Notes: generated by a model from the sequence alone, not told the origin. Shown: positions 4,227 to 23,523, counted from the stretch's first letter. The stretch is 39,257 nucleotides of DNA from an uncultured Candidatus Saccharibacteria bacterium (GCA_964524475.1 CAZGCO010000002.1:1-39257); one strand, 5' to 3'. Made by a program: numbers and translations.

Positions 4227-4235
4227 AATGTTTTG

Positions 4236-4308
4236 TGCGAGATAAGGGACTCGAACCCCTGACCTTCTCAGTGTAAATGAGTTGCTCTACCAACTGAGCT
4301 AATCTCGC
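4236..4308 (-). tRNA. tRNA-Val (TAC)
   Basis: Reverse complement GCGAGAT-TA-GCTC-AGTTGGTA-GAGC-A-ACTCA-TTTACAC-TGAGA-AGGTC-AGGGG-TTCGAGT-CCCTT-ATCTCGC-A. Confidence 0.9.
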
Positions 4309-4371: not shown

Positions 4372-4377
4372 TTATTG

Positions 4378-4449
4378 TCCCCCTGGCAGGAATCGAACCT
4401 ACATCAAGAGCTTAGAAGTCTCCTGTTCTATCCATTGAACTACAGGGAG
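4378..4449 (-). tRNA. tRNA-Arg (TCT)
   Basis: Reverse complement CTCCCTG-TA-GTTC-AATGGATA-GAAC-A-GGAGA-CTTCTAA-GCTCT-TGAT-GTAGG-TTCGATT-CCTGC-CAGGGGG-A. Confidence 0.85.
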
Positions 4450-4556: not shown

Positions 4557-5897
4557 ATGAATTTTAAGTCTTTTATTGAAAACAAGTCGCATAATACTGT
4601 TCCAGAACAAGAATATTTCAAAGAAACAGCAGGAAGTAGAGAATATTTATCTGCAAAAAAAATGGTTGATTTTATTACAAAAGCACAGTTAGATACTATA
4701 GGAACTGATGAAAATATAATTTTAATTACAGATCTTATTAATCAAAAAATAAGCAGACTTATTCCGGGTTCTGATATTTCAGGAATTATTCAAGAATTAA
4801 AAAACTCAGGATTTATTACCGAACCAGTACAAGAAAAAAAACCTAAAGTAGTTATACAGCCAGAACATATTGAAACAGAACGAATCACATTACAAGGTGC
4901 AAAAAAGATAGAACTCACAGCAGAAGAAAATGAACTCAAAGAAGCCAATCTACTACTTGATGAAATTAATCGTAAAAACATTTTTAAAAATAGTAATGAA
5001 TTAGATAGTTTATATACTCGAGTTATTTTAGAAAATAACGATTCAAGTGAAACATTGGATTACTATCATGAGTTCCAATCAGTCATAGGTGGGGGAATAC
5101 AAGAAATCCAAAAAGATTTTGATAAACTTCAAGAAAGAAAAGAATTATTCAAACAAAAAAATGATGTATCCTCTCCAAATTATAAAAAAATAGAAAACGC
5201 AAAAAAAATAGCAACACTCACAGAGTGTGCTGTAGCTACAGGAGTTTCTCAATTAAAATGGTTCGGAGAAAAAGTTTCAATTGTTCGTACCTCAGAGTTT
5301 GATGATGTTATGCATGGTATTGATGATTTACTCGAAATTAAAAAAGACTCTGATGAAAGTGATTTCCTCGGTTTAGGTATTGATGTTACTTTTCGTGGAT
5401 TAGAAAGTGAACAATTCAAAGAAAAATTTTTTAAATTACTACAATCTATTTTTGATGGATATCAACCAACAATAAAATATTCAAAAGATGATCAAGGTAA
5501 TTGTAAAAAAGAATTCAAAGTTCCTAAAATGGTTCTCTATTTTGGGGTGGATGATGTACGAGATATGGTAGAGATATTACGAAATACAAACGTGTCATCA
5601 GAACAAGATAGTTTGCAAAATAGTCCACAAAGAAAAAATATCATGAATCAAATTATTCATTCATGTAAAAAGCTTGCTAAATTTGCAGGAGAATATAAAA
5701 ATCCAATATTTCGTAAATATTATACAGTAATCAATTCATTAAAAGAGTTATCATTCAACGATGCTCAAATAGACGAAATGATTAATATAGATCATTCTGA
5801 TAAAGTGTCAGAAAAACTAGATCAATTAATCGAAGAGTTTAAACTTTTAAAAAGCTTAGAATATGCTCGTACAGAGAGTAATGAATATGGAAATTAA
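4557..5897 (+). CDS. Hypothetical protein (446 aa), AT-rich ORFan
   Basis: Long uninterrupted ORF, Lys/Glu/Asn-rich, with no motif I recognise securely. Its 3' end overlaps the start of the next gene. Confidence 0.7.
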   Translation: MNFKSFIENKSHNTVPEQEYFKETAGSREYLSAKKMVDFITKAQLDTIGTDENIILITDLINQKISRLIPGSDISGIIQELKNSGFITEPVQEKKPKVVIQPEHIETERITLQGAKKIELTAEENELKEANLLLDEINRKNIFKNSNELDSLYTRVILENNDSSETLDYYHEFQSVIGGGIQEIQKDFDKLQERKELFKQKNDVSSPNYKKIENAKKIATLTECAVATGVSQLKWFGEKVSIVRTSEFDDVMHGIDDLLEIKKDSDESDFLGLGIDVTFRGLESEQFKEKFFKLLQSIFDGYQPTIKYSKDDQGNCKKEFKVPKMVLYFGVDDVRDMVEILRNTNVSSEQDSLQNSPQRKNIMNQIIHSCKKLAKFAGEYKNPIFRKYYTVINSLKELSFNDAQIDEMINIDHSDKVSEKLDQLIEEFKLLKSLEYARTESNEYGN

Positions 5898-10331: not shown

Positions 10332-11390
10332 ATGATTCCTACTAATCTCTTGAAAATATTTTTGCCATCGTTATTTAGTTTTGTGCTGGGAATTATTCTT
10401 ACAAAATTATTTGTTCCGGTTATGTATGATTTAAAACTATGGAAACGTAGACCCAGAACCGATAATGATGATGCAATGAGTAATGCATTTAAACAATTAC
10501 ATGATGAAAAAACAGAAACAGGTACACCACGTGTGGGCGGTACTATTATATGGATTTCTGTATTGGTAGTAATATTGGGGATGTTCATTATGTCAAAACT
10601 TATTGGGGGAGCTGTGTTTGAAAAATTGGACTTCTTGTCACGTGGGCAGACATTACTTCCGCTCGGTGCGTTATTTTTCGGGGGTATATTTGGGCTTTTT
10701 GAAGACATGTTAGAAATATTTACTGATCGTTTTAAAATGTTTGCACAGGGGTTATCCAGTAAATATCTGGTAACGATTGTTGCATGTATTGGATTTTTAG
10801 CATCGCTTTGGTTTTTTTATAAACTCGATATGCATGGTGTGTATGTACCATTTGTAGGATATTGGAATCTGGGTTACGCATTTATTCCATTTTTCATATT
10901 AGTAGTATTAGGTACGTTCTCCAGTCGGGTTATTGATGGTATTGATGGTTTGGCTGCTGGGGTTATGTCGATATCATTTGGAACGTTTGGTGTGATTGCC
11001 TATTTGCAAAATCAGGTAGATATTGCAACGTTGTGTTTTGTAATTACTGGGGGAATATTAGCATTTTTATGGTTCAACGTTCCACCTGCAAAATATTATA
11101 TGGGAGAAACAGGTATGTTGGGACTGACACTTTGTCTGGCTATTATTGCATTTTTAACTGATGCAGTGTTTATATTACCCGTTGTTGGTTTTATGTTGGT
11201 ACTGACATCGGTATCATCATTTCTACAAATCATGAGTAAAAAATATCTGGGTCGCAAGGTATTTATTATTGCACCTATTCATCATCATTTTCAGGCATTA
11301 GGATGGTCCAGGGAGGCTATTACGATGCGATACTGGGTAGTAACGTTGATGTTAGCAGTTGTATCGATTTTATTCGTAATATTAGGATAA
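10332..11390 (+). CDS. mraY: Phospho-N-acetylmuramoyl-pentapeptide transferase
   Basis: Polytopic protein with the VIDGIDGLAAG and APIHHHF motifs. Confidence 0.92.
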   Translation: MIPTNLLKIFLPSLFSFVLGIILTKLFVPVMYDLKLWKRRPRTDNDDAMSNAFKQLHDEKTETGTPRVGGTIIWISVLVVILGMFIMSKLIGGAVFEKLDFLSRGQTLLPLGALFFGGIFGLFEDMLEIFTDRFKMFAQGLSSKYLVTIVACIGFLASLWFFYKLDMHGVYVPFVGYWNLGYAFIPFFILVVLGTFSSRVIDGIDGLAAGVMSISFGTFGVIAYLQNQVDIATLCFVITGGILAFLWFNVPPAKYYMGETGMLGLTLCLAIIAFLTDAVFILPVVGFMLVLTSVSSFLQIMSKKYLGRKVFIIAPIHHHFQALGWSREAITMRYWVVTLMLAVVSILFVILG

Positions 11391-11394
11391 TATT

Positions 11395-12513
11395 ATGCAC
11401 AAAGAAAACACACAACCAAAGATAGATAAACTATTCCTGATTATTACAGGAATTTTACTCGTGGTTGGTTTGGGTGTTTTTTTGTCAGCATCTTTGTCAT
11501 TATTATCTATTGATCCCGCAAAATTCAAGAGTATTTTGTTCAATCAATTAGTACTGGGATTTGTTGGGGGAATTATAGGTATTATGGTCGTCATGTATAT
11601 CCCACACAAGAAATTGCGTCCATGGGGATATGTTATTGGAGCTTTTGGAATATTGGCTACATTGTTGGTATTTGTTCCGGGACTCGGTGCAAGTCATGGT
11701 GGGGCAACACGTTGGCTCAATCTGGGTCCATTGTCATTCCAACCGGTAGAGCTGATGAAATATTGTGTGATTATTATGTACGGAGCATGGTTATCGTTTC
11801 ATTATGAAAAAATAGATCAATTCCGTTTCGGGATAATCCCTTTTCTGTTTGTTGTGGGGTTGTCTGGGGTGGTATTGTTATTGCAACCAGATACTGATAG
11901 TTTTATGATTATTGCTTTTGCATGTTTTTGTATGTATTTTGTATCAGGTGCCAGATGGCGTGATATAGGAATTATTATCATCATAGGAATTATAGGTGCT
12001 GGGGGGCTCATCATGACACGTCCCTATTTGTTATCTCGTGTAAAAGTTTTTCTTGATCCTACCAAAGATCCATTAGGGTCATCATATCAAGTACAACAAC
12101 AATTGATTGCTATAGGGTCAGGTAAAATAAACGGTCGTGGTTTTGGTCAGGGTATTCAAAAATTTAAATACCTCCCTGAACCATTGGGTGATTCTATTTA
12201 TGCGGTAGCAAGTGAAGAATGGGGTTTTGTTGGTTCAATCAGTATTGTTATCTTGTATTTATGTTTTGCATTACGGGGTATTATTATCGCTCTCCGTACA
12301 CCTGATATGTTCGGCAAGGTAATTATCACGGGAATAATATTCTTGATTATTGGTCAGTCATTTTTACATATTGCATCATCAATTGCTGTATTTCCATTGT
12401 CGGGACTGCCACTGGTATTTATTAGTCATGGGGGAACGGCATTGGCATTGTCTTTGATGGCTACGGGGCTTATTTTTAATATTTCACGGTTTATGAAACA
12501 ACCAGAGGAATAA
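11395..12513 (+). CDS. ftsW: SEDS-family peptidoglycan glycosyltransferase FtsW/RodA
   Basis: LGPLSFQPVELMKY, QPDTDSF and LPEPLGDSIYAVASEEWGF motifs. It lies between mraY and murG. Confidence 0.88.
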   Translation: MHKENTQPKIDKLFLIITGILLVVGLGVFLSASLSLLSIDPAKFKSILFNQLVLGFVGGIIGIMVVMYIPHKKLRPWGYVIGAFGILATLLVFVPGLGASHGGATRWLNLGPLSFQPVELMKYCVIIMYGAWLSFHYEKIDQFRFGIIPFLFVVGLSGVVLLLQPDTDSFMIIAFACFCMYFVSGARWRDIGIIIIIGIIGAGGLIMTRPYLLSRVKVFLDPTKDPLGSSYQVQQQLIAIGSGKINGRGFGQGIQKFKYLPEPLGDSIYAVASEEWGFVGSISIVILYLCFALRGIIIALRTPDMFGKVIITGIIFLIIGQSFLHIASSIAVFPLSGLPLVFISHGGTALALSLMATGLIFNISRFMKQPEE

Positions 12514-13709: not shown

Positions 13710-13714
13710 GGTGT

Positions 13715-14002
13715 ATGAAAAGAAATTTTGTAATAACTGCAAAACTCTGGCGTTGGAGCGGTGATATGTCAGCATGGCATTTTATCTATGTTCCCAAAGA
13801 TATGTCTATTATGCTCCGCGAGAATTTCCCACGCAGTTCTATGATCAAATGTTGTTATACTATCGGAGAAACAACATGGAACAGTAGTATGTTTTATAGT
13901 GCACGGGAAAAAGTTTATCTCATACCCGTCAAGCAAAAAATCAGAAAAATTGAGGGACTCATGTCGGGTGATGAAATAACTATTACCATTCAGATTTTAT
14001 AA
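13715..14002 (+). CDS. DUF1905-family protein
   Basis: WHFIYVPKD...IGETTWNSSMF...YLIPVKQKIRKIEGLMSGDEITI follows the DUF1905 pattern. Confidence 0.65.
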   Translation: MKRNFVITAKLWRWSGDMSAWHFIYVPKDMSIMLRENFPRSSMIKCCYTIGETTWNSSMFYSAREKVYLIPVKQKIRKIEGLMSGDEITITIQIL

Positions 14003-14011
14003 TATACCCCT

Positions 14012-14275
14012 ATGAAAACCTTTACTGAAAGAGTCATTGATATTGTGAAATCTATTCCAGCAGGGAGTGTGATGACCTATAAACAGGTCGCAGAGCGTGC
14101 GGGTAATGGACAGTCCAGTCGTGCAGTAGGGAGTATTATGCGAAAAAACTATGTTGATACAATTCCGTGTCACAGGGTAATTAGGTCGGATGGGAAAATA
14201 GGGAACTATAATCGAGGAGGTGAAAACATAAAATTGCAAAAGTTATTAGCAGAGGGGTATGTCCCAGAAAAATAG
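14012..14275 (+). CDS. MGMT-family DNA-binding domain protein (87 aa, PCHRV present)
   Basis: IPAGSVMTYKQVAERAG...SRAVGSIMRKN...IPCHRVIRSDGKIGNY. Confidence 0.85.
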   Translation: MKTFTERVIDIVKSIPAGSVMTYKQVAERAGNGQSSRAVGSIMRKNYVDTIPCHRVIRSDGKIGNYNRGGENIKLQKLLAEGYVPEK

Positions 14276-14284
14276 CCTTGAAAC

Positions 14285-14310
14285 AAAACCCTTGAAAAAT
14301 CAAGGGTTTT
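14285..14310 (+). terminator. Hairpin terminator
   Basis: aaaacccttg-aaaaat-caagggtttt. Confidence 0.75.
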
Positions 14311-14342
14311 GTGGTATGGTATTTTAAATTAAAATTGAAAAA

Positions 14343-15095
14343 ATGAACAATATTTTTTATAAACTCATCACGCCTATTATACGGGTACTTGGCTGGTTTA
14401 CAATCATTGTCATGGGTGTGGCGTATATACCGTTTCTAGTATATGATCCGTCCAGATATGTTATATGCAGATATTTTTTTATTGCCGGAAGTATTATCGC
14501 ATATGGATTTTGTGGATGGTTTAGAGTTAAGAGTCATTTACCTAATCCTCGTGAATATAATGAAAAACCTGCAATATTTATGGCGAACCATGCGAAATTT
14601 CTGGATTATTTTCTCACTACTGCTACAGTAGGAAAATTTTCAAAACATTACACAGTGGTGTATGGATCTAACTTGGAAAAACAGTGGCCAATATTCGGCT
14701 GGATACTGCCCAGGTGGTTTATATCAGTAAACAGGAAAAGTAGAATAAGCCGAGGTAAGGCTGGTATGAAAATAAAAGAAGCATTAGAAAAAGGTTGGAG
14801 TGTAGTCATTTTTCCCGAAGGAACACGTATGATGATTTCTGATTTCAATAAAGGTTTAATACTTAATGAATTCGAAATGCCTATTTTTGAAATTGCAAAA
14901 GAAATGAATATAGATATTATCCCTGTTTGTATTCATAAAAGAGATTTTTGTCCAAAGGGACAACGGTTTATAAAACCAGGTATTACAGATATTGACGTGT
15001 TATGTCCTGCAGTACCATCTGATTTTGAATCACATCAGGACCTTATGTTAGATGTGAGATCGCGGATGGTTGGTAACCTATCTCGTGAGATATAA
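14343..15095 (+). CDS. Lysophospholipid (1-acyl-glycerol-3-phosphate) acyltransferase-like
   Basis: N-terminal TM segments, HX4D box (NHAKFLD) and the FPEGTR motif. Confidence 0.8.
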   Translation: MNNIFYKLITPIIRVLGWFTIIVMGVAYIPFLVYDPSRYVICRYFFIAGSIIAYGFCGWFRVKSHLPNPREYNEKPAIFMANHAKFLDYFLTTATVGKFSKHYTVVYGSNLEKQWPIFGWILPRWFISVNRKSRISRGKAGMKIKEALEKGWSVVIFPEGTRMMISDFNKGLILNEFEMPIFEIAKEMNIDIIPVCIHKRDFCPKGQRFIKPGITDIDVLCPAVPSDFESHQDLMLDVRSRMVGNLSREI

Positions 15096-15120
15096 AAACA
15101 ATTTAAAAGATTTTTAATAA

Positions 15121-15159
15121 CCCCTTATACATACAAGATGGAGTATAAGGGGTTTTTTT
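15121..15159 (+). terminator. Hairpin terminator
   Basis: ccccttatac-12 nt-gtataagggg followed by T7. Confidence 0.75.
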
Positions 15160-15246
15160 ATTGACTTTCTAAATGATATAACCCACGGCGGTGTACATCC
15201 GGGGTAAAATGCTTTACACTATCAATATGTTACATTAAAAATTATT

Positions 15247-15462
15247 ATGAATATCAAAACAAACAACAAAGGTCGCCATCGCGACAATCCTGCAAAGGCA
15301 CAGCGTGTACAAAACGGCAAACTATGGGAAATGATCAAGTCCCAGGCACAGGGACGGTCTGCAAAACTCTCGCCCGAGAAACTCACCAGTGCAATCAATC
15401 AATTCAGAACTACCAGGCCAAATCAACCAAATGGCAAGAAACCAATAAACCGCCCCAAATAG
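15247..15462 (+). CDS. Small highly basic, low-complexity protein (71 aa)
   Basis: ORF rich in K/R/Q/N/P. Its TAG stop lies in the loop of the terminator at 15449-15476. Confidence 0.5.
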   Translation: MNIKTNNKGRHRDNPAKAQRVQNGKLWEMIKSQAQGRSAKLSPEKLTSAINQFRTTRPNQPNGKKPINRPK

Positions 15463-15476
15463 GGGTGGTTTTTTTG
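15449..15476 (+). terminator. Hairpin terminator
   Basis: accgcccc-aaata-ggggtggt plus a T run. Confidence 0.7.
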
Positions 15477-15640
15477 ATTGAACATATTGTGGTACAGTAA
15501 TGTAGTACAGTATTTACGTAAATATGTGTTGACAAGTTAACATAGTTATTACCCTTTCATCAAAACACTTGTTTTTATTGTGTATATTATGTATAATTAA
15601 AAAAGGTCGATAATTAAAAGATTTTTTATAAACTTATTAT

Positions 15641-16012
15641 ATGTTTAATTTTACAGAATTTAGAGATGTAGGAGCAAAACTAACACCTATTATTTCATTA
15701 GGAGAAAATAGTGGTTTCGGTATATCATCAGGTTTTTCCCGTAAATATGATGTGAAAGATGTTGTTGCTACAAAAATGTATTATGATCAAGAAAAAAAAG
15801 TTATTGCATTTAAATTTTTAAAACAGAAAGAAAAAGGTACAGTTAGTGTAAAAATGCGTGAAAAAGGTGGATATATAAATGCAAAATCTTTTTTGAAAAC
15901 TTTCAAAATCGATCAAAAAATATATTGTGGAAGATATGAACCAGAAGAAATAATGGATGAAAATCTAGGAAAAATATATGTTATTTATCTTAAAGATAGA
16001 AGTTCTTTATAA
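15641..16012 (+). CDS. Hypothetical 123-aa protein with two-fold internal repeat (possible AbrB/MraZ-like DNA binder)
   Basis: AT-rich ORF. The half-repeats are GFGISSGFSRKYDV..VIAFKF and GGYINAKSFLKTFKI..IYVIYL. Confidence 0.6.
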   Translation: MFNFTEFRDVGAKLTPIISLGENSGFGISSGFSRKYDVKDVVATKMYYDQEKKVIAFKFLKQKEKGTVSVKMREKGGYINAKSFLKTFKIDQKIYCGRYEPEEIMDENLGKIYVIYLKDRSSL

Positions 16013-16154
16013 ATCAAAAAGCCAGAAACTTATATTTCTGACTAATTGATTGATTATTAATCAAATCCTATTAAAATGAAATTTCTTCCTTGGAAATGTT
16101 GAGCATTTTAATTGGTACCCTTTTGGGTTAATTACATAATAGCATGTTTCTATT

Positions 16155-16559
16155 ATGTTTTCAATTGTAATTAGTATGAGTAAGAAAAAAATCATTAATC
16201 ATGATATAAAAAATAGTTTTAAATTAAACTCAGCGACTCCTATTTGGTATGATGCTACAAATGGTGACCATGTTGTTATTACTAAGGATCGTTTACGTAT
16301 AATTGAGTTGACAATGAATTCAGAATCAAATAATACTACTCGTTTTGGTATATCAATTGGTTTATTTGTCCCTACATTAATCTCACTACCAACAGTAGGT
16401 AATTACAATAATTTTATAGGAATTTCAGGTGCTACGTGGCATGCTATAACATTAATTCTTGTTGTAATATCTGGGATTAGTGCAATATTTTTTTTCCATA
16501 AAATGGTAACCCATAAAAAGAAATCTTTAGTTGATGAAGTTTTTAATAAAAAAAATTAA
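16155..16559 (+). CDS. Hypothetical two-TM membrane protein (134 aa; alternative start 16176)
   Basis: Soluble N-terminal about 65 aa, then FGISIGLFVPTLISLPTV and WHAITLILVVISGISAIFFF. Confidence 0.6.
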   Translation: MFSIVISMSKKKIINHDIKNSFKLNSATPIWYDATNGDHVVITKDRLRIIELTMNSESNNTTRFGISIGLFVPTLISLPTVGNYNNFIGISGATWHAITLILVVISGISAIFFFHKMVTHKKKSLVDEVFNKKN

Positions 16560-16566
16560 AACACTT

Positions 16567-16597
16567 AAAAACTCCTATGTATTAAATAGGAGTTTTT
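16567..16597 (+). terminator. Hairpin terminator
   Basis: aaaaactcctat-gtattaa-ataggagttttt. Confidence 0.75.
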
Positions 16598-16772
16598 AAC
16601 TATATTTATAAAATATTTTTCTTATGTCCAAATTCTCAAAACTCACAAAAGAAGATCTACTTGTCCTTACTGAAAAGAAAGAAGCGGAGCTTTAAGTCCA
16701 ATAAATATGGGGCCGTTTGGTTTAAAGTGTGAGTTTATTTCAAAATTAAAAGCTTTATGGTATGATGGAAAT

Positions 16773-19229
16773 ATGAAAAATAAAAGTTTAAAATTTTTAT
16801 CAGAAAAAGAAGGGCAAATAAAATTCTTTGAAGATTTAAAAATCAGTGCTGATATTGAACTTACAAATAATACTGACGGTATTTATAAAGGTACTCTTTT
16901 TGAGTTTAAGCTTACTATAGGTGATATAAATAAAGTATTATTTCAAGCTATAAAATATTTGAGTCACTTAAGAGTTAGAGGTGTGCCAGTGCCAAAACAA
17001 ATTTTACTTGTAGCACTAAATGAACAAATTGCTTATCTTTTCGATTCATTTCAATTTTTAAAATATATAGAAGAAATATATGCGGGGTCAGCTAGTAAAA
17101 ATAATTCCGAGTTTAATACAAATATAAAACCTGAGAAAATAGATTTTAGTAATATAAAAGGACTTTCAAGAATAATAAAGGTTTTAGACAATCTAGAGTA
17201 TACGAGAGTACATATAGATGTATTTAATGTTGTTGGATGGTCAGAACATTTTTATAGGGAAAATCCAAAAGCGACAAAAAGTAAATTATTTGAAGAATTA
17301 CGAGATCCAAAAGTTTTTAAAAAATATATTTATCCTTGGAAAGGGTCTGATTTAGATTTTAAATATATAAATGATCTATTAAATGCTAAAATTCTAAAAA
17401 AAGAATTAGGTGCTTTTTATACTCCCAAACTCTACTGCCTTAAATCAACAGAACTTGTTCGTAAGGCAATAAAAGAAATACCAAAAGGCAATGATTATAT
17501 TATTTTAGATAGGTCAGCAGGGACAGGGAACCTTGAAGAGTTTCTCACTGATAAGAATGTGAATGATATAACAATAAGCGAGCTCGATAAATATATTCTT
17601 GAAGAAATAAAAATAAAATATTTACAGGATAAAGCAACCGTCATTAAAACTTTTTATAAAGATAAGATATTCAATGATATTACTATTGGTGAACTAGAAG
17701 AACATAAAACAAAATTATCAATGCATGATTTTATTTTCGATAATGAATTATCTCATGCTATTGTAAACACATATGAACTTAAAGAGTGGATTGTTTTGTA
17801 TGAAAGATTTGGTGATAAGGTTAGGCTTATAATACCACCAGAAGTTAATCCAAAAGATCAACTTGTAAATGGAGGTGATGCTTTATCAGAAATATTTGTT
17901 ATGGGTAGTAAAAGTCAAAATAAAGCAAAACTAAAAAAAGAATACTTCGAGATTATAGATGAAGTAAATAATTATGTTAAAGATCCAAAAACAAATATTA
18001 TTTTGTACGAAAATCCTCCTTATAGAGATAGTAGTGCAGCAAATACAGAAAATAGTACAAATAAAACAAGTAAAGGAACTTTTACTTTTGAAAAAATGAA
18101 AGAAGATTTAAAAAATCTTTCAAACTCAAATATAAGTACAGCAAGAGATATTTCAAATCAATTTATTTGGTCTGCTTGGAAATATTATTTAACTAAAAAA
18201 GACGATGCTTATATACTCTTTAGTCCTATAAAATACTGGAAATCTCTTGGTCTTGGTAATAAAAAGTTTATAGATGGACTTTTGTTTAATAGAAAATATT
18301 TTCATGCAACAGACAGTTCCATCAGTTGTATTTTATGGAAAAATGAAGAAGAAAATAAGGAAGAATTAACTTTAAAAGTTTTTGATATTGACAATAATAA
18401 AACTGAAGATCTAGATGATGATAAATTGTTAAGACTTGATGATATTGTAATTAAAAAGGTATATTCAACTTTAACTCCATTTTTCGATAAAAGAGATTTT
18501 GATGAAGATAAAAAAACAAGTGTTTGGTGTGGTGGTGATGGTTTGGAAGTGTTAGTAAAAAACAAAGATGGAGTTTCTTTGTATAATAAAAATATCGTTG
18601 GTTATTTACAGGCTATTGGTTATTCTGTTGATGCTAAACATTATAATTTACTCAATCAAATTTATTATGGAGCCAGAGGATTTTATTTAAGATCAGATAA
18701 TTTTATTGAAAAACTTCCTTTATTTGCTGCAAAGCTTTATCCACAAAAAAATTGGTATGAAAGAGATGTTTATTTTACAACAGCAGACGGCGGAAATAAA
18801 TACTTAAAAGATAAAGTTTTTTTGAAACAATGTTTTATATTTACTTGTCTTTCACAAAAAAATCATTGTAGAAGTTTTGATGGAAGTGATGGAATATTTT
18901 ATAAAAATGAACTTTGTTTTGATAAAAAAACTACTGCAAGTGAGAAATTAAAAGTTTATAAAATTACAAAAGAAGAGCAAGATTTATTAGACTCTTTTAA
19001 TGATATTTTAAAAATGGCAAAAGACACAGAAAATTATAATAAAAAATATACTTATGGAACATATCAAATAGATCAAGAATTAAATACAAGATATAAAAGT
19101 GAAAATGATGAATGGATATACGAATATCCACAATTAAATACAGCGATCAATGGGATTAAAACAAAACTTGCGAGATATTATGAAAATAATATACAGACAA
19201 AACTTTTTGAGTATGAATTATTAAAATAA
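16773..19229 (+). CDS. Fused PD-ExK nuclease / gamma-class N6-adenine DNA methyltransferase (Type IIL/IIG R-M-like), 818 aa
   Basis: D-x8-E-x-K (TDGIYKGTLFEFK), then GAFYTP, ILDRSAGTGN, NGGDAL and YENPPYRD in that order, plus about 300 aa of unassigned C-terminus. ATG 16773 lies 6 nt after TGgTATGAT. The ORF track's 16707 start is probably upstream read-in. Confidence 0.8.
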   Translation: MKNKSLKFLSEKEGQIKFFEDLKISADIELTNNTDGIYKGTLFEFKLTIGDINKVLFQAIKYLSHLRVRGVPVPKQILLVALNEQIAYLFDSFQFLKYIEEIYAGSASKNNSEFNTNIKPEKIDFSNIKGLSRIIKVLDNLEYTRVHIDVFNVVGWSEHFYRENPKATKSKLFEELRDPKVFKKYIYPWKGSDLDFKYINDLLNAKILKKELGAFYTPKLYCLKSTELVRKAIKEIPKGNDYIILDRSAGTGNLEEFLTDKNVNDITISELDKYILEEIKIKYLQDKATVIKTFYKDKIFNDITIGELEEHKTKLSMHDFIFDNELSHAIVNTYELKEWIVLYERFGDKVRLIIPPEVNPKDQLVNGGDALSEIFVMGSKSQNKAKLKKEYFEIIDEVNNYVKDPKTNIILYENPPYRDSSAANTENSTNKTSKGTFTFEKMKEDLKNLSNSNISTARDISNQFIWSAWKYYLTKKDDAYILFSPIKYWKSLGLGNKKFIDGLLFNRKYFHATDSSISCILWKNEEENKEELTLKVFDIDNNKTEDLDDDKLLRLDDIVIKKVYSTLTPFFDKRDFDEDKKTSVWCGGDGLEVLVKNKDGVSLYNKNIVGYLQAIGYSVDAKHYNLLNQIYYGARGFYLRSDNFIEKLPLFAAKLYPQKNWYERDVYFTTADGGNKYLKDKVFLKQCFIFTCLSQKNHCRSFDGSDGIFYKNELCFDKKTTASEKLKVYKITKEEQDLLDSFNDILKMAKDTENYNKKYTYGTYQIDQELNTRYKSENDEWIYEYPQLNTAINGIKTKLARYYENNIQTKLFEYELLK

Positions 19230-19283
19230 GCACAATTATAAAAACAAAAACCCTAACAGGGTTTTTGTTTTTATAATTGTGCT
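19229..19283. terminator. 55-nt perfect palindrome (26-bp arms) closing the island
   Basis: agcacaattataaaaacaaaaaccct-aac-agggtttttgtttttataattgtgct, checked base by base. The right arm runs into the tspO -10 region. Confidence 0.8.
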
Positions 19284-19294
19284 ATACTACCCTC

Positions 19295-19723
19295 ATGCAA
19301 ACAATCTTGAAATATTTTAGTAACAGTTCCTTTACCAACTATGCAGAACTGGTCAAGCCTACATGGGCGCCGCCGTCATGGATATTTGGTCCTGTGTGGA
19401 GCGTGTTATATGTCATGATTATCGTATCGTTCGGTGCGGTGTTTATGCGTGCATTTACAGGATCATCACGACTGCCGTTTATCGTGGTACTGCCGTTTAT
19501 TATCAACATCATCGCAAACCTAGCGTTTACACCGATACAGTTCGGACTGCGGAACTTGCCATTGGCGTCACTGGATATTCTGATTGTTCTGGGGACGATT
19601 ATCTGGGCGATGATTGCGATATATCCCCACATGCGGTGGGTTGCGTATATGCAAATTCCGTATCTGTTATGGGTTTCATTTGCTACGGTATTACAATTAA
19701 CGATTACATTTATGAATTGGTAG
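19295..19723 (+). CDS. tspO: TspO/MBR-family tryptophan-rich sensory protein
   Basis: KPTWAPPSWIFGPVWSVLYVMI and five TM segments. ATG lies 6 nt after TGcTATACT. Confidence 0.85.
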   Translation: MQTILKYFSNSSFTNYAELVKPTWAPPSWIFGPVWSVLYVMIIVSFGAVFMRAFTGSSRLPFIVVLPFIINIIANLAFTPIQFGLRNLPLASLDILIVLGTIIWAMIAIYPHMRWVAYMQIPYLLWVSFATVLQLTITFMNW

Positions 19724-19750
19724 AATATTATTTATTATTTTTTAAAACTT

Positions 19751-19972
19751 ATGAAATTATTTCCACAAAAAAACATCGGTACGTTTGATAGAATTGTTCG
19801 ATTACTGTTTGCAGTGTTTATTGGTATCTATATGATACTGGGCAATCACACTATGCCGGTCATGATAGTATTGGGTATTGTGGTGTTGTTTTGTATATAT
19901 CAGGCAATTGCTAGGTGGTGTTTGTGGTATCAGATTATTGGTAAAAACACTTGTCCTGTGGGTGACGAATAA
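19751..19972 (+). CDS. DUF2892 (YgaP-like) small membrane protein
   Basis: NIGTFDRIVRLLFAVFIG... plus a C-terminal Cys-containing tail. Confidence 0.7.
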   Translation: MKLFPQKNIGTFDRIVRLLFAVFIGIYMILGNHTMPVMIVLGIVVLFCIYQAIARWCLWYQIIGKNTCPVGDE

Positions 19973-19983
19973 AATAATTTTTT

Positions 19984-20445
19984 ATGAAGTATTGGCTCAT
20001 TAAAAGTGAACATGATTGTTACCGTATCGACGATCTAAAACGTGACCGGAAAACGGCGTGGACAGGTGTGCGTAATTATCAAGCACGGAATTTCATGAAC
20101 ACTATGGAGCAGGGGGACGAGATATTGTTCTATCATTCAGGTGGTGATAAACACAATCCCACAGGGGTGTATGGTACAGCACGAGTCAGTGGCAAGGCAA
20201 AACCAGATGAAACACAGTTTGATAAGAGTGACGACCATTATGATAGTAAATCAAGTCACGAAAAACCAATCTGGTATTGTGTGGATGTGACTTTTGTTAG
20301 CAAGTTCCAGCATCCTGTAACACTGACAGAGATTAAACACGATCAGAAATTATCCGGTATACCGGTAGCACAAACAGGTTCGCGTCTATCAGTCCAGCCT
20401 GTATCGGAAAAACATTTCAGGTATATTGTGGATAATTTAGCATAA
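19984..20445 (+). CDS. EVE (PUA-like) domain protein
   Basis: MKYWLIKSEHD.Y.IDDL......WTGVRNYQARNFM..M..GD.ILFYHS is the canonical EVE N-terminus. Confidence 0.85.
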   Translation: MKYWLIKSEHDCYRIDDLKRDRKTAWTGVRNYQARNFMNTMEQGDEILFYHSGGDKHNPTGVYGTARVSGKAKPDETQFDKSDDHYDSKSSHEKPIWYCVDVTFVSKFQHPVTLTEIKHDQKLSGIPVAQTGSRLSVQPVSEKHFRYIVDNLA

Positions 20446-20469
20446 AAACAGACAAAACGTCTGTTTTTT
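20444..20469 (+). terminator. Hairpin terminator
   Basis: aaaaacagac-aaaac-gtctgttttt. Confidence 0.7.
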
Positions 20470-20485
20470 GATATACTGGTTCTCT

Positions 20486-20725
20486 ATGGAAAACGAAACA
20501 GAAAACACCTATCAGGTAGTGGATTGTCAGGGGACAGAGCTCCACAGTGGCGACAGTGTCCAAGTAATCAAAGATCTTAATGTCCGTGGGGCAAAATTAT
20601 CAATTCGTAAGGGGACGGTTATTAAAAACATAAAACTCACTGCCGATGAAGAAGAAATCGAATGTCGCGTTGATGATATGAAAGGCATCATTCTGCGTAC
20701 TGAATTTCTCCGTAAAAAGGGGTAA
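20486..20725 (+). CDS. PhnA C-terminal-domain-like small protein
   Basis: VVDCQGTELHSGDSVQVIKDLNVRGAKLSIRKGTVIKNIKL...IECRVDDMKGIILRTEFLRK resembles the PhnA C-terminal domain. Confidence 0.7.
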   Translation: MENETENTYQVVDCQGTELHSGDSVQVIKDLNVRGAKLSIRKGTVIKNIKLTADEEEIECRVDDMKGIILRTEFLRKKG

Positions 20726-20728
20726 TAG

Positions 20729-20768
20729 AAAACCGCATGTATATGTTATATATATATGCGGGTTTTTT
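20729..20768. terminator. Bidirectional hairpin between convergent genes
   Basis: aaaaccgcat ... atgcgggtttttt (one bulge). Confidence 0.55.
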
Positions 20769-20788
20769 TAATGAAACTATTATCTTTT

Positions 20789-21727
20789 TTATGCTTTTAC
20801 TGGTCTTTTTGCCAGTATGTCGGTGATGATTTCCGCAAGTTTTTCTTCGAGAGGAATTACTTGGAAATTCTTCGGTAATTTTTTGTGAACAAACGAATTT
20901 GTCACAAACACATTTTTTAATCTTGATGAACCGAGTTTGTTAATTGCTTTACTTTTGTGAAGTAAGTGAGTAATACATGCGTATACATTACGAGCACCTT
21001 GTTCATAGAGTAAGTCAGTTGCCCCTATGATAGTACCACCTGTATCGGTCATATCATCGACAATTATGACGTCTTTACCAGTTACATCGCCAATCAGAAC
21101 CATGTTACCAATCTCACCAGGCTTTGGTCTGGTTTTATCAACCAATACGTAACCAGTATCAAGTTTCTCGGCAAAACTTTTTGCTCTACTTGCTCCACCG
21201 ACATCGGCACTTGAAATGATAAGGTTGGCTAAATCAATTCCAGGATATTTTTTGAGGTAATCGGTGCAAAGTATACTACCGCCAATATGGATTACTGGGA
21301 CACCTATCAATCCTTCGGCTTGTTTGCTGTGCATGTCGAGTGTAATAAGCTGTGTAAGTCCTGCTACTGCAAAAAATTCTCCAATTAGTTTCGCTGTAAT
21401 GGGCTGTCTCATTTTTGACCTATAATCTTGGCGCAGATAAGGCACAAATGGATCAATCAAAAATATTTTTTCTGCTGATGCACGTTTACATGCATCAATG
21501 AGCGTAAGTACTCGCATAAGTTCTGAATTCACGTCGCCATTGTATTGATGAACAATGAACACATACTTTGCTCTCACACTATCTGAAGGGTAGGCGATTA
21601 CTTCGCCAGAATTAAATGTTTCACTGTTTACGATTTGTAAACAATTACCACCATCTATTCTTTTTGCAATCTTTTCTGCAAATTTCTTGTCTCTATCGGT
21701 GCTCAGGACTAAAAAGTGATTTTCCAT
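20789..21727 (-). CDS. prs: Ribose-phosphate pyrophosphokinase
   Basis: DMHSKQAEG and the PRPP-binding loop VIIVDDMTDTGGTI. 312 aa. Confidence 0.92.
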   Translation of the reverse strand: MENHFLVLSTDRDKKFAEKIAKRIDGGNCLQIVNSETFNSGEVIAYPSDSVRAKYVFIVHQYNGDVNSELMRVLTLIDACKRASAEKIFLIDPFVPYLRQDYRSKMRQPITAKLIGEFFAVAGLTQLITLDMHSKQAEGLIGVPVIHIGGSILCTDYLKKYPGIDLANLIISSADVGGASRAKSFAEKLDTGYVLVDKTRPKPGEIGNMVLIGDVTGKDVIIVDDMTDTGGTIIGATDLLYEQGARNVYACITHLLHKSKAINKLGSSRLKNVFVTNSFVHKKLPKNFQVIPLEEKLAEIITDILAKRPVKA

Positions 21728-21779
21728 TATGTAATTGTTATAGGTTAAAATTCAATCATAACTATATCACGATTTTAAT

Positions 21780-21814
21780 AAAAAACAACCCTCTTGGTTG
21801 ACGGGTTGTTTTTT
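21780..21814. terminator. Hairpin terminator
   Basis: aaaaaacaaccc-11 nt-gggttgtttttt. Confidence 0.7.
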
Positions 21815-21819
21815 ATTGA

Positions 21820-22083
21820 TTATTTTTTGTTACGCCAATATGGAGCGAAACGGATCATCCAGGTATAGATTTTTGCCAGGATCCATGGGGTACCATTTTT
21901 GCGCATAGACTGGTAGCACATGGTTTGGAATTCTGATAAACTCATTCCTTCACAATTAAGCTTGCCATTATTATAACAATACGAACAATAGTTCGGGTTT
22001 TCGCGTACACCAGGGTCTTTGGCAAATGGCATCATACACGCCTGACATGACCCCTGTGCGCAGATTTTTTCATTTTGTTGCAT
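21820..22083 (-). CDS. Putative zinc-ribbon domain protein (87 aa)
   Basis: CxxC...CxxC pattern: CQACMMPFAKDPG...NYCSYCYNNGKL. Confidence 0.65.
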   Translation of the reverse strand: MQQNEKICAQGSCQACMMPFAKDPGVRENPNYCSYCYNNGKLNCEGMSLSEFQTMCYQSMRKNGTPWILAKIYTWMIRFAPYWRNKK

Positions 22084-22170
22084 ATATGTATATTATAGAT
22101 ATTTTAACCCTAAAAGACAAGATATTTAAAACTGTATTTTTGATTCATTTTGTGGTAGTATCATTATATT

Positions 22171-23523
22171 ATGTCAGAAAATAATCCAAAAATCGTTACC
22201 CGTTTTGCACCATCTCCAACTGGGAAAGCTCATGCTGGGGGGTATAGAACTGCCATGTATGCATGGCTTTTTGCTCGTCAAAATAAAGGTAAATTCATAC
22301 TTCGTATTGAAGATACCGATAAAGCTCGTAATACAGAAGAATCAAAAGATGATATTTTTGAGGCGTTAGCATGGCTCGGTATTAACCATGACGAAATGTA
22401 TATTCAGTCAGAAAACCTTGAACGACACAAAGAGGTCCTTAAAAAACTTATTAATGAAGACAAGGCGTATGTTTCTCATGAACCTTCAAATGATGACCTC
22501 ACTGTTATAAAAGATGTAATTCGTTTTCGTAACCCTGGTCAGGTAATTACTTTTACTGATCTTATTCGTGGCGAGGTAACTATTAATACTGAAGATCTCG
22601 GAGACTTTGTTTTAGCTAGAACTATTGATGACCCAGTATATCATTTAGCGGCTATTGTAGATGACCATGACGAAGGAGTAACTCATGTGATTCGCGCAGA
22701 AGAGCATATTCCTAATACTCCGAGACATATTCTTATTATGCAGGCACTTGGTTGGGATATTCCACAGTATGCGCACTTACCGTTGGTACTTACAGCTGAT
22801 AGAAAAAAACTATCAAAACGCAAGGGGGCGCTTGCGATGACAGACTATGCAAAATTAGGCTATTTACCAGGAGCGGTTTTTAATTGTATTTCAATGTTAG
22901 GGTGGAATCCTGCTGATCCTGGATCTGAACAGGAAATATTTTTAATTCCTGAACTTATTGAAAGATTTAATTTTAATAGAATGCAAAAAGCAGGTGCAAT
23001 ATTTAATACTGAAAAGCTCAATTGGTTTAATCGTGAATATATTAAATCACTCGACACCGATACACAGAAAAAATATGTGAAGGATTTTATGCCAAGTGAA
23101 TTACTTGAAAAAATAGGGAATGAAACATTTGAAAAACTTTTCCCAGTAATTATCGAACGTGTAGAATATTTTGGTCAGGTAACAGAAATGGCAGCATCTG
23201 GCGAGTATGATTATACTGCCACAGAACCTGTGTATGATATCGAACGCGCCATCTGGAAAACCTGCGACAGGGAAACCACACAGAAACACTTGCAATATGT
23301 ACATGATACATGGTCAGCACATACAGGACTATGGAATCATGAAACCTTGAAATCTATTGTATGGGATTATGCGCAGGAACATGGGGCAGGGAATGTGTTG
23401 TGGCCAGTGCGCTATGCGCTCACCGGGCGTGAAAAATCTCCTGATCCGTTCGTTGTGGCATATATTATCGACAAGGAAAAAACATTGCAGAGACTACAAT
23501 TTGCAATAAATAATTTAGAATAA
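22171..23523 (+). CDS. gltX: Glutamyl-tRNA synthetase
   Basis: VTRFAPSPTGKAHAGG (HIGH-type), RIEDTD and KLSKRKG (KMSKS-type). Confidence 0.92.
   Translation: MSENNPKIVTRFAPSPTGKAHAGGYRTAMYAWLFARQNKGKFILRIEDTDKARNTEESKDDIFEALAWLGINHDEMYIQSENLERHKEVLKKLINEDKAYVSHEPSNDDLTVIKDVIRFRNPGQVITFTDLIRGEVTINTEDLGDFVLARTIDDPVYHLAAIVDDHDEGVTHVIRAEEHIPNTPRHILIMQALGWDIPQYAHLPLVLTADRKKLSKRKGALAMTDYAKLGYLPGAVFNCISMLGWNPADPGSEQEIFLIPELIERFNFNRMQKAGAIFNTEKLNWFNREYIKSLDTDTQKKYVKDFMPSELLEKIGNETFEKLFPVIIERVEYFGQVTEMAASGEYDYTATEPVYDIERAIWKTCDRETTQKHLQYVHDTWSAHTGLWNHETLKSIVWDYAQEHGAGNVLWPVRYALTGREKSPDPFVVAYIIDKEKTLQRLQFAINNLE

Follow-up and report, generated by a model that had tools for sequence, protein, structure and literature searches.

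A candidate lone Type IIG/IIL-like restriction–modification enzyme on an AT-rich mosaic island of a Patescibacteria genome

Introduction

Type IIG enzymes unite restriction and modification domains in one polypeptide. In the Eco57I/BpuSI-type members an N-terminal PD-(D/E)xK nuclease is joined to a gamma-class methyltransferase and a target-recognition domain (TRD), and these systems usually have a companion methyltransferase. MmeI, of Type IIL (structure 5HR4), is likewise a single chain, arranged as PD-ExK nuclease, linker, gamma-class methyltransferase and C-terminal TRD; its family methylates one strand and cleaves, in an S-adenosylmethionine (SAM)-dependent fashion, about 20/18 nt from an asymmetric site. 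In the MmeI family the N-terminal PD-ExK domain carries Asp at the start of beta-2 and ExK at the end of beta-3, host protection is provided by one enzyme with neither a flanking methyltransferase nor consistent neighbours, and membership is defined by similarity to MmeI over the entire length (PMC2731913). Here, these systems are compared with a locus on a 39,257-nt stretch of DNA (the window) from an uncultured Candidatus Saccharibacteria bacterium (GCA_964524475.1, CAZGCO010000002.1:1-39257), where an AT-rich island at 15480-19290 contains the gene for an 818-residue putative nuclease–methyltransferase.

Genomes of the Candidate Phyla Radiation (CPR) are rich in restriction systems, which are gained on islands (PMC4742961, PMC12455944), and the Patescibacteria, mostly devoid of CRISPR-Cas, are thought to depend on restriction in their defence and perhaps also to scavenge nucleotides by it (PMC4742961). 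Neither Type IIG nor Type IIL enzymes are mentioned in a 2026 survey of CPR methyltransferases. An earlier note on the window had described the island as a candidate defence locus of four units, in which a Type IIL-like restriction–modification (R-M) enzyme travels with a possible DNA-binding controller and a possible membrane effector. Our analysis keeps the enzyme and parts it from its neighbours: the segment is probably a mosaic acquired island with a lone, self-sufficient Type IIG/IIL-like R-M enzyme, and the small genes are not its partners.

The 818-residue protein and its family

Four open reading frames (ORFs) lie on the plus strand of the island, at 15641-16012, 16155-16559, 16624-16695 and 16707-19229, all of them as the earlier note had listed them. 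The last would encode 840 amino acids (aa) from its first ATG at 16707; homologues and DNA homology start at Met-23, and the protein is accordingly taken as 818 aa (16773-19229, plus strand), the length proposed before. It is the only unit of the island that is common with other genomes. Its family comprises 2,584 clusters at E-value (E) ≤ 1e-3 in a 90%-identity collection and 535 representative clusters at 50% identity; the top 120 clusters are 62–77% identical and about 815 aa long, and the public names of family members are all 'hypothetical protein'. Most of the family belongs to Patescibacteria (those named being Gribaldobacteria and Moranbacteria), and homologues with 33–35% identity occur on four Limosilactobacillus plasmids. 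Relatives of the large gene were found neither in IMG/VR nor among 50,697 phage records, and a phage origin of the gene was rejected on this basis.

The putative PD-(D/E)xK-type nuclease motif occupies 16803-16958 near the N-terminus, with E11 (16803-16805), D35 (16875-16877), E44-F-K46 (16902-16910) and Q58-x-x-x-Y62 (16944-16958). All of these residues are invariant in 35 close sequences, are kept by practically every one of 54 divergent, full-length representatives (~27–54% identity), down to about 27%, and the motif is present in the Limosilactobacillus plasmid homologues as well. The spacing D35-x8-E44-x-K46 is close to the D70-x9-E80-x-K82 of MmeI, a likeness at the level of the motif only. 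Around the motif, the predicted secondary structure is arranged as alpha-beta-beta-beta-alpha-beta, with a strand at residues 42-46 that ends in EFK and a helix at 52-68 behind it, and in the model this order fits a PD-(D/E)xK core.

A gamma-class N6-adenine methyltransferase core follows at 17403-18023 (plus strand), with motif X (ELGAFYTP, 17403-17426), motif I (DRSAGTG, 17508-17528) and motif IV (NPPY, 18012-18023) in the order X-I-IV. ELGAFYTP, D-R-x-A-G-T-G and ENPPY are invariant in the 35 sequences and retained in the 54 representatives and the plasmid homologues; N-P-P occurs in 120/120 sequences, the next residue being Y in 109 and F in 10. The protein shows the motif order, the (D/N)PP(Y/F) signature and the fold of a gamma-class methyltransferase, without matching Pfam N6_Mtase or Eco57I. 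Between motifs I and IV the protein has about 60 additional residues (17559-17747), a CPR-specific insertion that is missing in Limosilactobacillus and distant members. The chain ends in a domain of about 180 residues (18690-19226, plus strand), which exceeds all other parts of the protein in conservation and in model confidence (block conservation 0.84–0.90; predicted local distance difference test (pLDDT) above 90 at residues 680-800), for which Pfam gave no match. A C-terminal Cys/His cluster was considered as a family-defining zinc site and rejected, as it is not conserved beyond the CPR subfamily.

The AlphaFold model of the whole chain has a pLDDT of 70 and a predicted template-modelling score (pTM) of 0.50. 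Its fold matches include CamA (E 9e-4, probability 0.99), MmeI, M.BseCI, BpuSI, HsdM and BsaXI, and all PDB fold matches with E below 1 are DNA methyltransferases or R-M enzymes. The nuclease–methyltransferase fusion with Type IIL-like traits that the earlier note had recognised is thus upheld at the level of motifs, which carry the hallmarks of Type IIG/IIL architecture and would place the 818-aa chain in the generic Type IIG class.

Each of the closest described enzymes resembles the protein in part. With MmeI it shares the single chain, the order of domains, a specificity that is varied in the TRD, and a gene that has neither a second methyltransferase nor consistent neighbours; the structural likeness is weak (Foldseek to 5HR4, E 0.018, template-modelling (TM) score 0.16). 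In contrast to MmeI it is shorter (818 vs 919 aa) and has the CPR-specific insertion of ~60 residues, the unmatched C-terminal domain of ~180 residues and a second variable block that co-varies with the TRD. The Type IIG enzyme BpuSI (3S1S) combines the same three elements and could be aligned over 629 columns, but the match is weak (E 0.07, TM 0.20), Pfam Eco57I and TaqI_C are unmatched, and no companion methyltransferase is found at large-gene loci. The M.TaqI-like enzyme CamA (7LNI) is the best structural match for the methyltransferase and TRD part and has the motif order X-I-IV with NPPY; however, CamA is an orphan without a nuclease domain, identity is 13–16%, and the 818-aa protein adds some 200 N-terminal residues with the nuclease motif as well as the extra C-terminal domain.

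Variable specificity blocks

Within the 818-aa family, residues 421-460 and 541-640 are the least conserved. Two variable blocks were delimited there and compared among 66 family members: V1, directly past NPPY (18024-18158, plus strand; residues ~418-462), with 11 allele groups, and V2, the putative TRD (18450-18680, plus strand; residues ~560-636), with about 15. In 49 pairs of sequences the core is at least 85% identical and V2 at most 35%; conversely, 39 pairs combine a core identity of at most 75% with a V2 identity of at least 80%. V1 and V2 co-vary (Spearman 0.59), and the V2 allele of the window is a singleton among the 66 members. Judged by these patterns, V1 and V2 behave as exchangeable target-recognition modules, like those of Type I, IIG and IIL enzymes.

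Genomic context of the large gene

Besides the window, 87 other large-gene loci were compared, and across them the large gene is solitary and its context variable. The commonest neighbour family occurs in 9/87 loci at most; recurring neighbours are GmrSD_N (9/87), an IS240-type DDE transposase, DUF2130, AAA_14/DUF4143 (6/87), AbiEii and RhuM/Fic. No second methyltransferase lies beside the large gene, either in the 87 loci or in the Pfam-annotated contexts L001, L002 and L005, and the one neighbour with an NPPY motif among the 87 is a UvrD/PDDEXK helicase. DNA homology between these loci is limited to the ORF, running from 16758/16790 to 19184/19250. The contexts on long contigs are all different, namely between the S10 and L3 genes, behind a GmrSD gene, and within unrelated flanks; in L001 the large gene is AT-rich relative to its host too, with a guanine plus cytosine (G+C) content of 0.285 vs 0.39.

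The Limosilactobacillus plasmids are small (9–14 kb) and carry the large gene as a solitary gene next to a relaxase or IS30 (L176, 6557-9022, L. reuteri pAN417D, WP_003676765.1; L177, 6248-8641; L178, 4809-7274). An L. oris plasmid copy beside an IS30 transposase lacks the TDG...E part and has LPFK in place of EFK, and its N-terminus may be disrupted.

An 86-aa XRE-type helix-turn-helix (HTH; HTH_3) gene adjoins the large gene in 6/87 loci, upstream on the same strand in four of them and only 20 bp away in L106 (123-383). It resembles an R-M controller protein, and in this respect 4–6 of the 87 family loci are like C-protein-controlled R-M systems; the window, on the other hand, has no XRE-type gene, and the 123-aa protein encoded upstream in the island is not an HTH protein.

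In the ribosomal protein cluster, rpsJ (S10) and rplC (L3) usually stand side by side. In L002 (7049-15805; ENA contig NODE_160, 98.9 kb) the two are separated by an insertion that holds the large gene and about eight accessory genes, among them 23S_rRNA_IVP, PDDEXK_1, DUF5652 and several unknowns. In two loci (L113, 6099-6551; L152, 25-258) a TspO homologue is found no more than a few kb away from the large gene, and an EVE-domain homologue (49% identical) is found about 480 bp downstream of it in L125 (3224-3664). This echo of the order island–tspO–ygaP–EVE in the window may, given the small number of cases, be coincidence or may reflect shared genes of flexible regions.

Proposed mode of action

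In the predicted architecture, a helical linker follows the N-terminal PD-(D/E)xK nuclease and leads to a SAM-dependent N6-adenine DNA methyltransferase of the gamma class, a swappable TRD and a conserved C-terminal domain. In such an enzyme, the TRD and the loop behind NPPY would read a short asymmetric DNA site, and the methyltransferase domain would N6-methylate adenine in the host copies of that site. Because a partner methyltransferase is missing, protection would have to come from this one enzyme, as in the lone-strand modification of the MmeI type, and the N-terminal nuclease would cleave unmodified incoming DNA at a fixed spacing, determined by the linker. New specificities could arise when otherwise near-identical genes exchange TRD modules, and the large gene may spread as a bare ORF among genomes and plasmids, into defence and mobile-element neighbourhoods and flexible regions. 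Cleavage, hemi-methylation and a role in defence are thus predictions by analogy. A role in nucleotide scavenging, as proposed for CPR restriction enzymes (PMC4742961), is compatible with them.

The small genes and the hairpins

The earlier note had joined the large gene to the two small genes upstream as one system, and the co-occurrence on which this depends fails. Either small gene is absent from all 87 large-gene loci, the 134-aa ORF has no relatives, and the four other neighbourhoods of the 123-aa family that were examined all lack the large gene.

The 123-aa gene (15641-16012) forms, with its upstream region and the hairpin at 16020-16043, a self-contained cassette (15584-16067, plus strand), with 82% DNA identity to L011 over exactly this interval. 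Only seven relatives of the protein were found, and four other neighbourhoods were examined. In L011 (97-6502) the relative stands beside a Type III-like pair of an N6_N4 methyltransferase (Mod) and ResIII, in L013 (712-4836) beside a Dcm-HpaII-Vsr set, in L008 (5332-7390) beside a Phage_CRI/RHS region, and in L010 it lies close to a PemK/Phd pair, between rpmB and sodA; RadC often precedes and DUF3892 often follows the family gene. The protein matches uncharacterised phage proteins, such as Gp105 of Lactococcus phage KSY1 (E 3e-6). Because of these contexts, the self-contained cassette and matches to phage proteins only, the 123-aa protein is regarded as a small protein of phage or mobile-element type in an independent cassette. 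Unrelated R-M systems adjoin the family in two of the four neighbourhoods (L011, L013), and it may be either an accessory associated with R-M systems or a mobile, conserved 'leader' module. That this phage-like family is a genuine R-M-associated accessory, for example a regulator or an anti-restriction factor, is quite improbable.

An internal duplication and a possible DNA-binding role had been ascribed to this protein. The duplication is not significant by sequence (Smith–Waterman z = 0.83; hhalign P = 0.033), and what remains of it are two beta-beta-alpha units in the structural model (pLDDT 85.8). The model has no PDB fold match (best E 0.24), Pfam detects no HTH, and the proposed DNA-binding controller thereby loses its footing, the protein having neither an HTH nor a known DNA-binding fold and matching phage proteins. 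An AbrB/MraZ-like duplicated DNA binder was likewise considered and rejected, given the non-significant duplication and the missing PDB fold match.

The 134-aa ORF (16155-16559, plus strand) is putatively coding. Hydropathy indicates two hydrophobic segments (residues ~64-82 and ~87-119), in agreement with the two transmembrane segments ascribed to it earlier. A homologue search that covered 5.8 billion sequences returned none; a weak PHROG match (E 2e-4) and an identical copy in a second sample of the same strain (L095) were found. The ORF is probably a lineage-specific passenger. The 23-codon ORF (16624-16695, plus strand), counted before as a unit of the locus, is not conserved, homology to the 87 loci starting only at ~16758-16790; it is probably not a gene, because the DNA around it is shared with no other family locus.

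Hairpins stand behind each of three units, at 16020-16043, 16565-16599 and 19229-19283, as had been noticed before; terminator-like sites are frequent in the region (8 observed vs 1.2 expected). The hairpin 3′ of the 134-aa ORF (16565-16599, plus strand) is terminator-like, with a 14-bp stem. The 55-nt element at the right edge of the island (19229-19283), also recognised earlier, is a perfect palindrome of 26+3+26 nt with a minimum free energy of −35.5 kcal/mol (z = −13) and is read as a bidirectional terminator. No further copies of it occur in the window or in 178 loci, and a stable hairpin past the stop codon is found in just 5/64 large-gene family loci. The possibility that the palindrome marks the conserved terminus of a mobile unit, or is a repeat element, was rejected in view of its unique copy and the hairpin count.

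Composition and setting of the island

The composition of the island is foreign. Its G+C content is 0.259 vs a mean of 0.372 (standard deviation (sd) 0.016, minimum 0.334) in all other 3.8-kb windows of the stretch, a difference of about 7 sd. G+C at third codon positions (GC3) is 0.09, 0.16 and 0.13 in the three island genes and 0.22–0.35 in housekeeping genes, and the overall G+C of the three is alike (0.255–0.269). G+C drops on the left at ~15450-15500, directly past the terminator of orf71 (15447-15471), and rises on the right at ~19250-19300. The AT-richness relative to both flanks that the earlier note had pointed out is therefore real, and its two example lines contain the 11 G+C (from 17341) and 32 G+C (from 12601) that it gave.

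In nearly all of 80 related murG loci, searched by tblastn with the neighbourhood proteins, murG is followed directly by a homologue of gltX, the Glu/Gln-tRNA synthetase gene found at 22171-23523 in the window. (The best match of the window's MurG is 69% identical, with one genome per species, and named matches are Paceibacteria, Parcubacteria and Nomurabacteria.) In the window the two genes are separated by 8.5 kb (13710-22170), which contain DUF1905, an MGMT-like DNA-binding domain, PlsC, orf71, the island, TspO, YgaP-TM, EVE, an 85-aa ORF and, on the opposite strand, prs. Island genes were found in 0/80 of the related murG loci, and the closest relative (L015) has the order murG-DUF1905-plsC-gltX without any of them. 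The murG–gltX junction is a variable hot spot, and its comparison among relatives, in line with the check that the earlier note had proposed for plsC–tspO, supports an insertion. The island (15480-19290), nested in this accessory stretch, is considered foreign DNA because of its low G+C and GC3 and because its genes are missing from the related murG-gltX loci. The AT-rich 3.7 kb were probably gained by horizontal transfer as a mosaic, within a variable part of a Paceibacteria-type (Patescibacteria) genome.

Pfam agrees that the flanks, a PlsC-type acyltransferase and TspO, are functionally unrelated, and, as had been reported, neither an integrase nor a transposase is seen at the island; an adjacent tRNA and a convincing flanking direct repeat are missing there too. 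Known RNA families of the Rfam type are absent from the island, tRNAs occurring elsewhere in the window only.

Weighing the alternatives

Had the three or four ORFs formed one defence system, with the 123-aa protein as DNA-binding controller and the 134-aa protein as membrane effector of the R-M enzyme, their common strand, similar G+C (0.255–0.269), tight spacing and identical arrangement in the second sample (L095) would be expected, and 123-aa relatives do stand beside other R-M systems in 2/4 other neighbourhoods. Yet L095 is 100% identical DNA from the same strain, either small gene is found in 0/87 other large-gene loci, the 134-aa ORF is without any homologue, and the homology of the 123-aa gene, whose product lacks an HTH or known DNA-binding fold, forms a block by itself that includes a terminator; a terminator hairpin stands behind each gene, and there is therefore no operon. 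Such a system is extremely improbable. In our reading, the reason why no described system corresponds to this combination of genes is that chance brought them together in a mosaic; they are not a system. It is scarcely more plausible, and still highly improbable, that the 818-aa protein serves as methyltransferase or specificity subunit of a larger dispersed system, be it BREX/PglX-like, DISARM-like or MmeI-like with a separate helicase and nuclease. PglX-type and some MmeI-like large gamma-class methyltransferases do need partners (PMC2731913), and GmrSD (9/87) and an AAA_14/DUF4143 ATPase (6/87) recur at low frequency; however, no neighbour is present in more than ~10% of loci, no BREX or DISARM component is matched in PADLOC, a conserved nuclease motif lies in the protein itself, and the 9–14-kb plasmids carry the gene alone, without such partner genes.

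An orphan DNA adenine methyltransferase, in which the N-terminal domain would be a DNA-binding or regulatory module and which, without restricting DNA, would serve epigenetic control or guard against other restriction enzymes, deserves more attention. CamA, the best fold match, is itself an orphan, the nuclease region of the model is of low confidence and recognised by no database, and some MmeI relatives without the nuclease motif do not cleave (PMC2731913). This explanation is nevertheless rated as unlikely because the nuclease motif is strictly conserved: E11, D35, E44, K46, Q58 and Y62 are kept to ~27% identity, which would be hard to explain without catalytic selection. The degenerate nuclease that the earlier note had allowed for is not what the 54 divergent members show, essentially all of them keeping the motif. 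The predicted order of secondary structure and the placement of the motif also fit PD-(D/E)xK, and the shuffling of TRDs, the defence-island, transposon and plasmid contexts and the upstream XRE HTH gene in some loci are typical of restriction systems.

Several observations weigh against the probable reading, a mosaic acquired island with a lone, self-sufficient R-M enzyme. Searches of the island proteins against Pfam, NCBIfam, PADLOC-DB v2, PHROGs and PDB sequences yielded no useful family assignment, and the 818-aa protein has no match in Pfam (E ≤ 0.1 for the whole protein; isolated domains at E ≤ 10 gave noise), NCBIfam, PADLOC or the PDB sequences (E ≤ 10, as a single sequence and as a profile of the 35-sequence family). 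The last library includes MmeI 5HR4, and neither this sequence, even by profile, nor the Pfam MmeI_* models were matched; the protein has no sequence similarity to MmeI, and the full-length homology by which the MmeI family is defined is lacking. Around D35 the pLDDT falls below 50, and support for the nuclease is at the level of the motif. TM-scores of the fold matches are low (0.16–0.20), which we attribute to the poor inter-domain packing of the model (pTM 0.50). Identity of 62–77% across many lineages and a highly conserved C-terminal domain might hint at a role different from classical restriction. For the island, the exact PlsC protein was used to look for a near-identical strain with an empty site, and none turned up: the sole other contig with the same PlsC is L095, which is 100% identical DNA from a second sample of the same strain. 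Since the search yielded this contig only and no precise junction was seen, the insertion is inferred from composition and from more distant synteny.

The wider screens gave a similar picture. The defence-database screen suggested earlier was run with PADLOC, where at E ≤ 1 there were 0 matches for the proteins of the island, for a close relative and a distant member, and for the plasmid homologue; another distant member had a single marginal one (MTase_II, E 0.056). Pfam and PADLOC applied to ten distant relatives and the plasmid homologue gave nothing useful. It is quite possible, though short of probable, that the more than 2,500 clusters at 90% identity and 535 at 50% identity represent a large, uncatalogued clade of self-sufficient Type IIL-like R-M enzymes. 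The 818-aa protein is best seen as an effectively new family within a known kind of enzyme, and a novel multi-gene defence locus is unsupported.

Were such a clade real, restriction capacity in CPR bacteria would be under-counted and defence inventories would be incomplete, while the ~15 TRD alleles among 66 genes would constitute a natural library of specificities on a near-constant scaffold. A constant scaffold with exchangeable modules is attractive for obtaining new cleavage and methylation specificities, as has been done for MmeI. The interest of the family lies mainly in its size, its invisibility to annotation and its Limosilactobacillus plasmid homologues, which occur in cultured hosts and make the prediction testable. 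With regard to the island, the main value of the analysis is negative, in that an apparent four-gene defence locus is reduced to a known enzyme type and unrelated passenger ORFs.

Flanking genes and other features of the window

The island is bracketed by orf71 (15247-15462), a small basic ORF, and tspO (19295-19723), both of which have a GC3 of ~0.5 vs ~0.29 in the host. Their homologues adjoin each other in L020 (tspO 11367-11768, orf71 12316-12513), and the pair may be a separate, higher-GC acquisition. With these two high-GC3 genes as neighbours again in L020, the entire stretch resembles a zone of accretion. A direct repeat of 18 nt, TTAAAAGATTTTT(T)AATAA (17/18 matching), occurs at 15103-15120, just past the plsC stop codon, and at 15614-15631, just ahead of the 123-aa gene. 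It flanks the GC-rich orf71 block and not the island, and may be due to chance in AT-rich DNA or be the trace of an insertion.

A second foreign-looking patch at 4557-5897 holds a 446-aa ORF with a G+C of 0.283 and a GC3 of 0.15, for which there were zero Pfam or PADLOC matches. Genes for tRNA-Val (4235-4308) and tRNA-Arg (4377-4449) lie on the minus strand just upstream of this patch, and tRNA genes are a classic integration target. A further, partial tRNA (Rfam 40 bits) occupies positions 1-59 on the minus strand, where it is cut by the start of the window.

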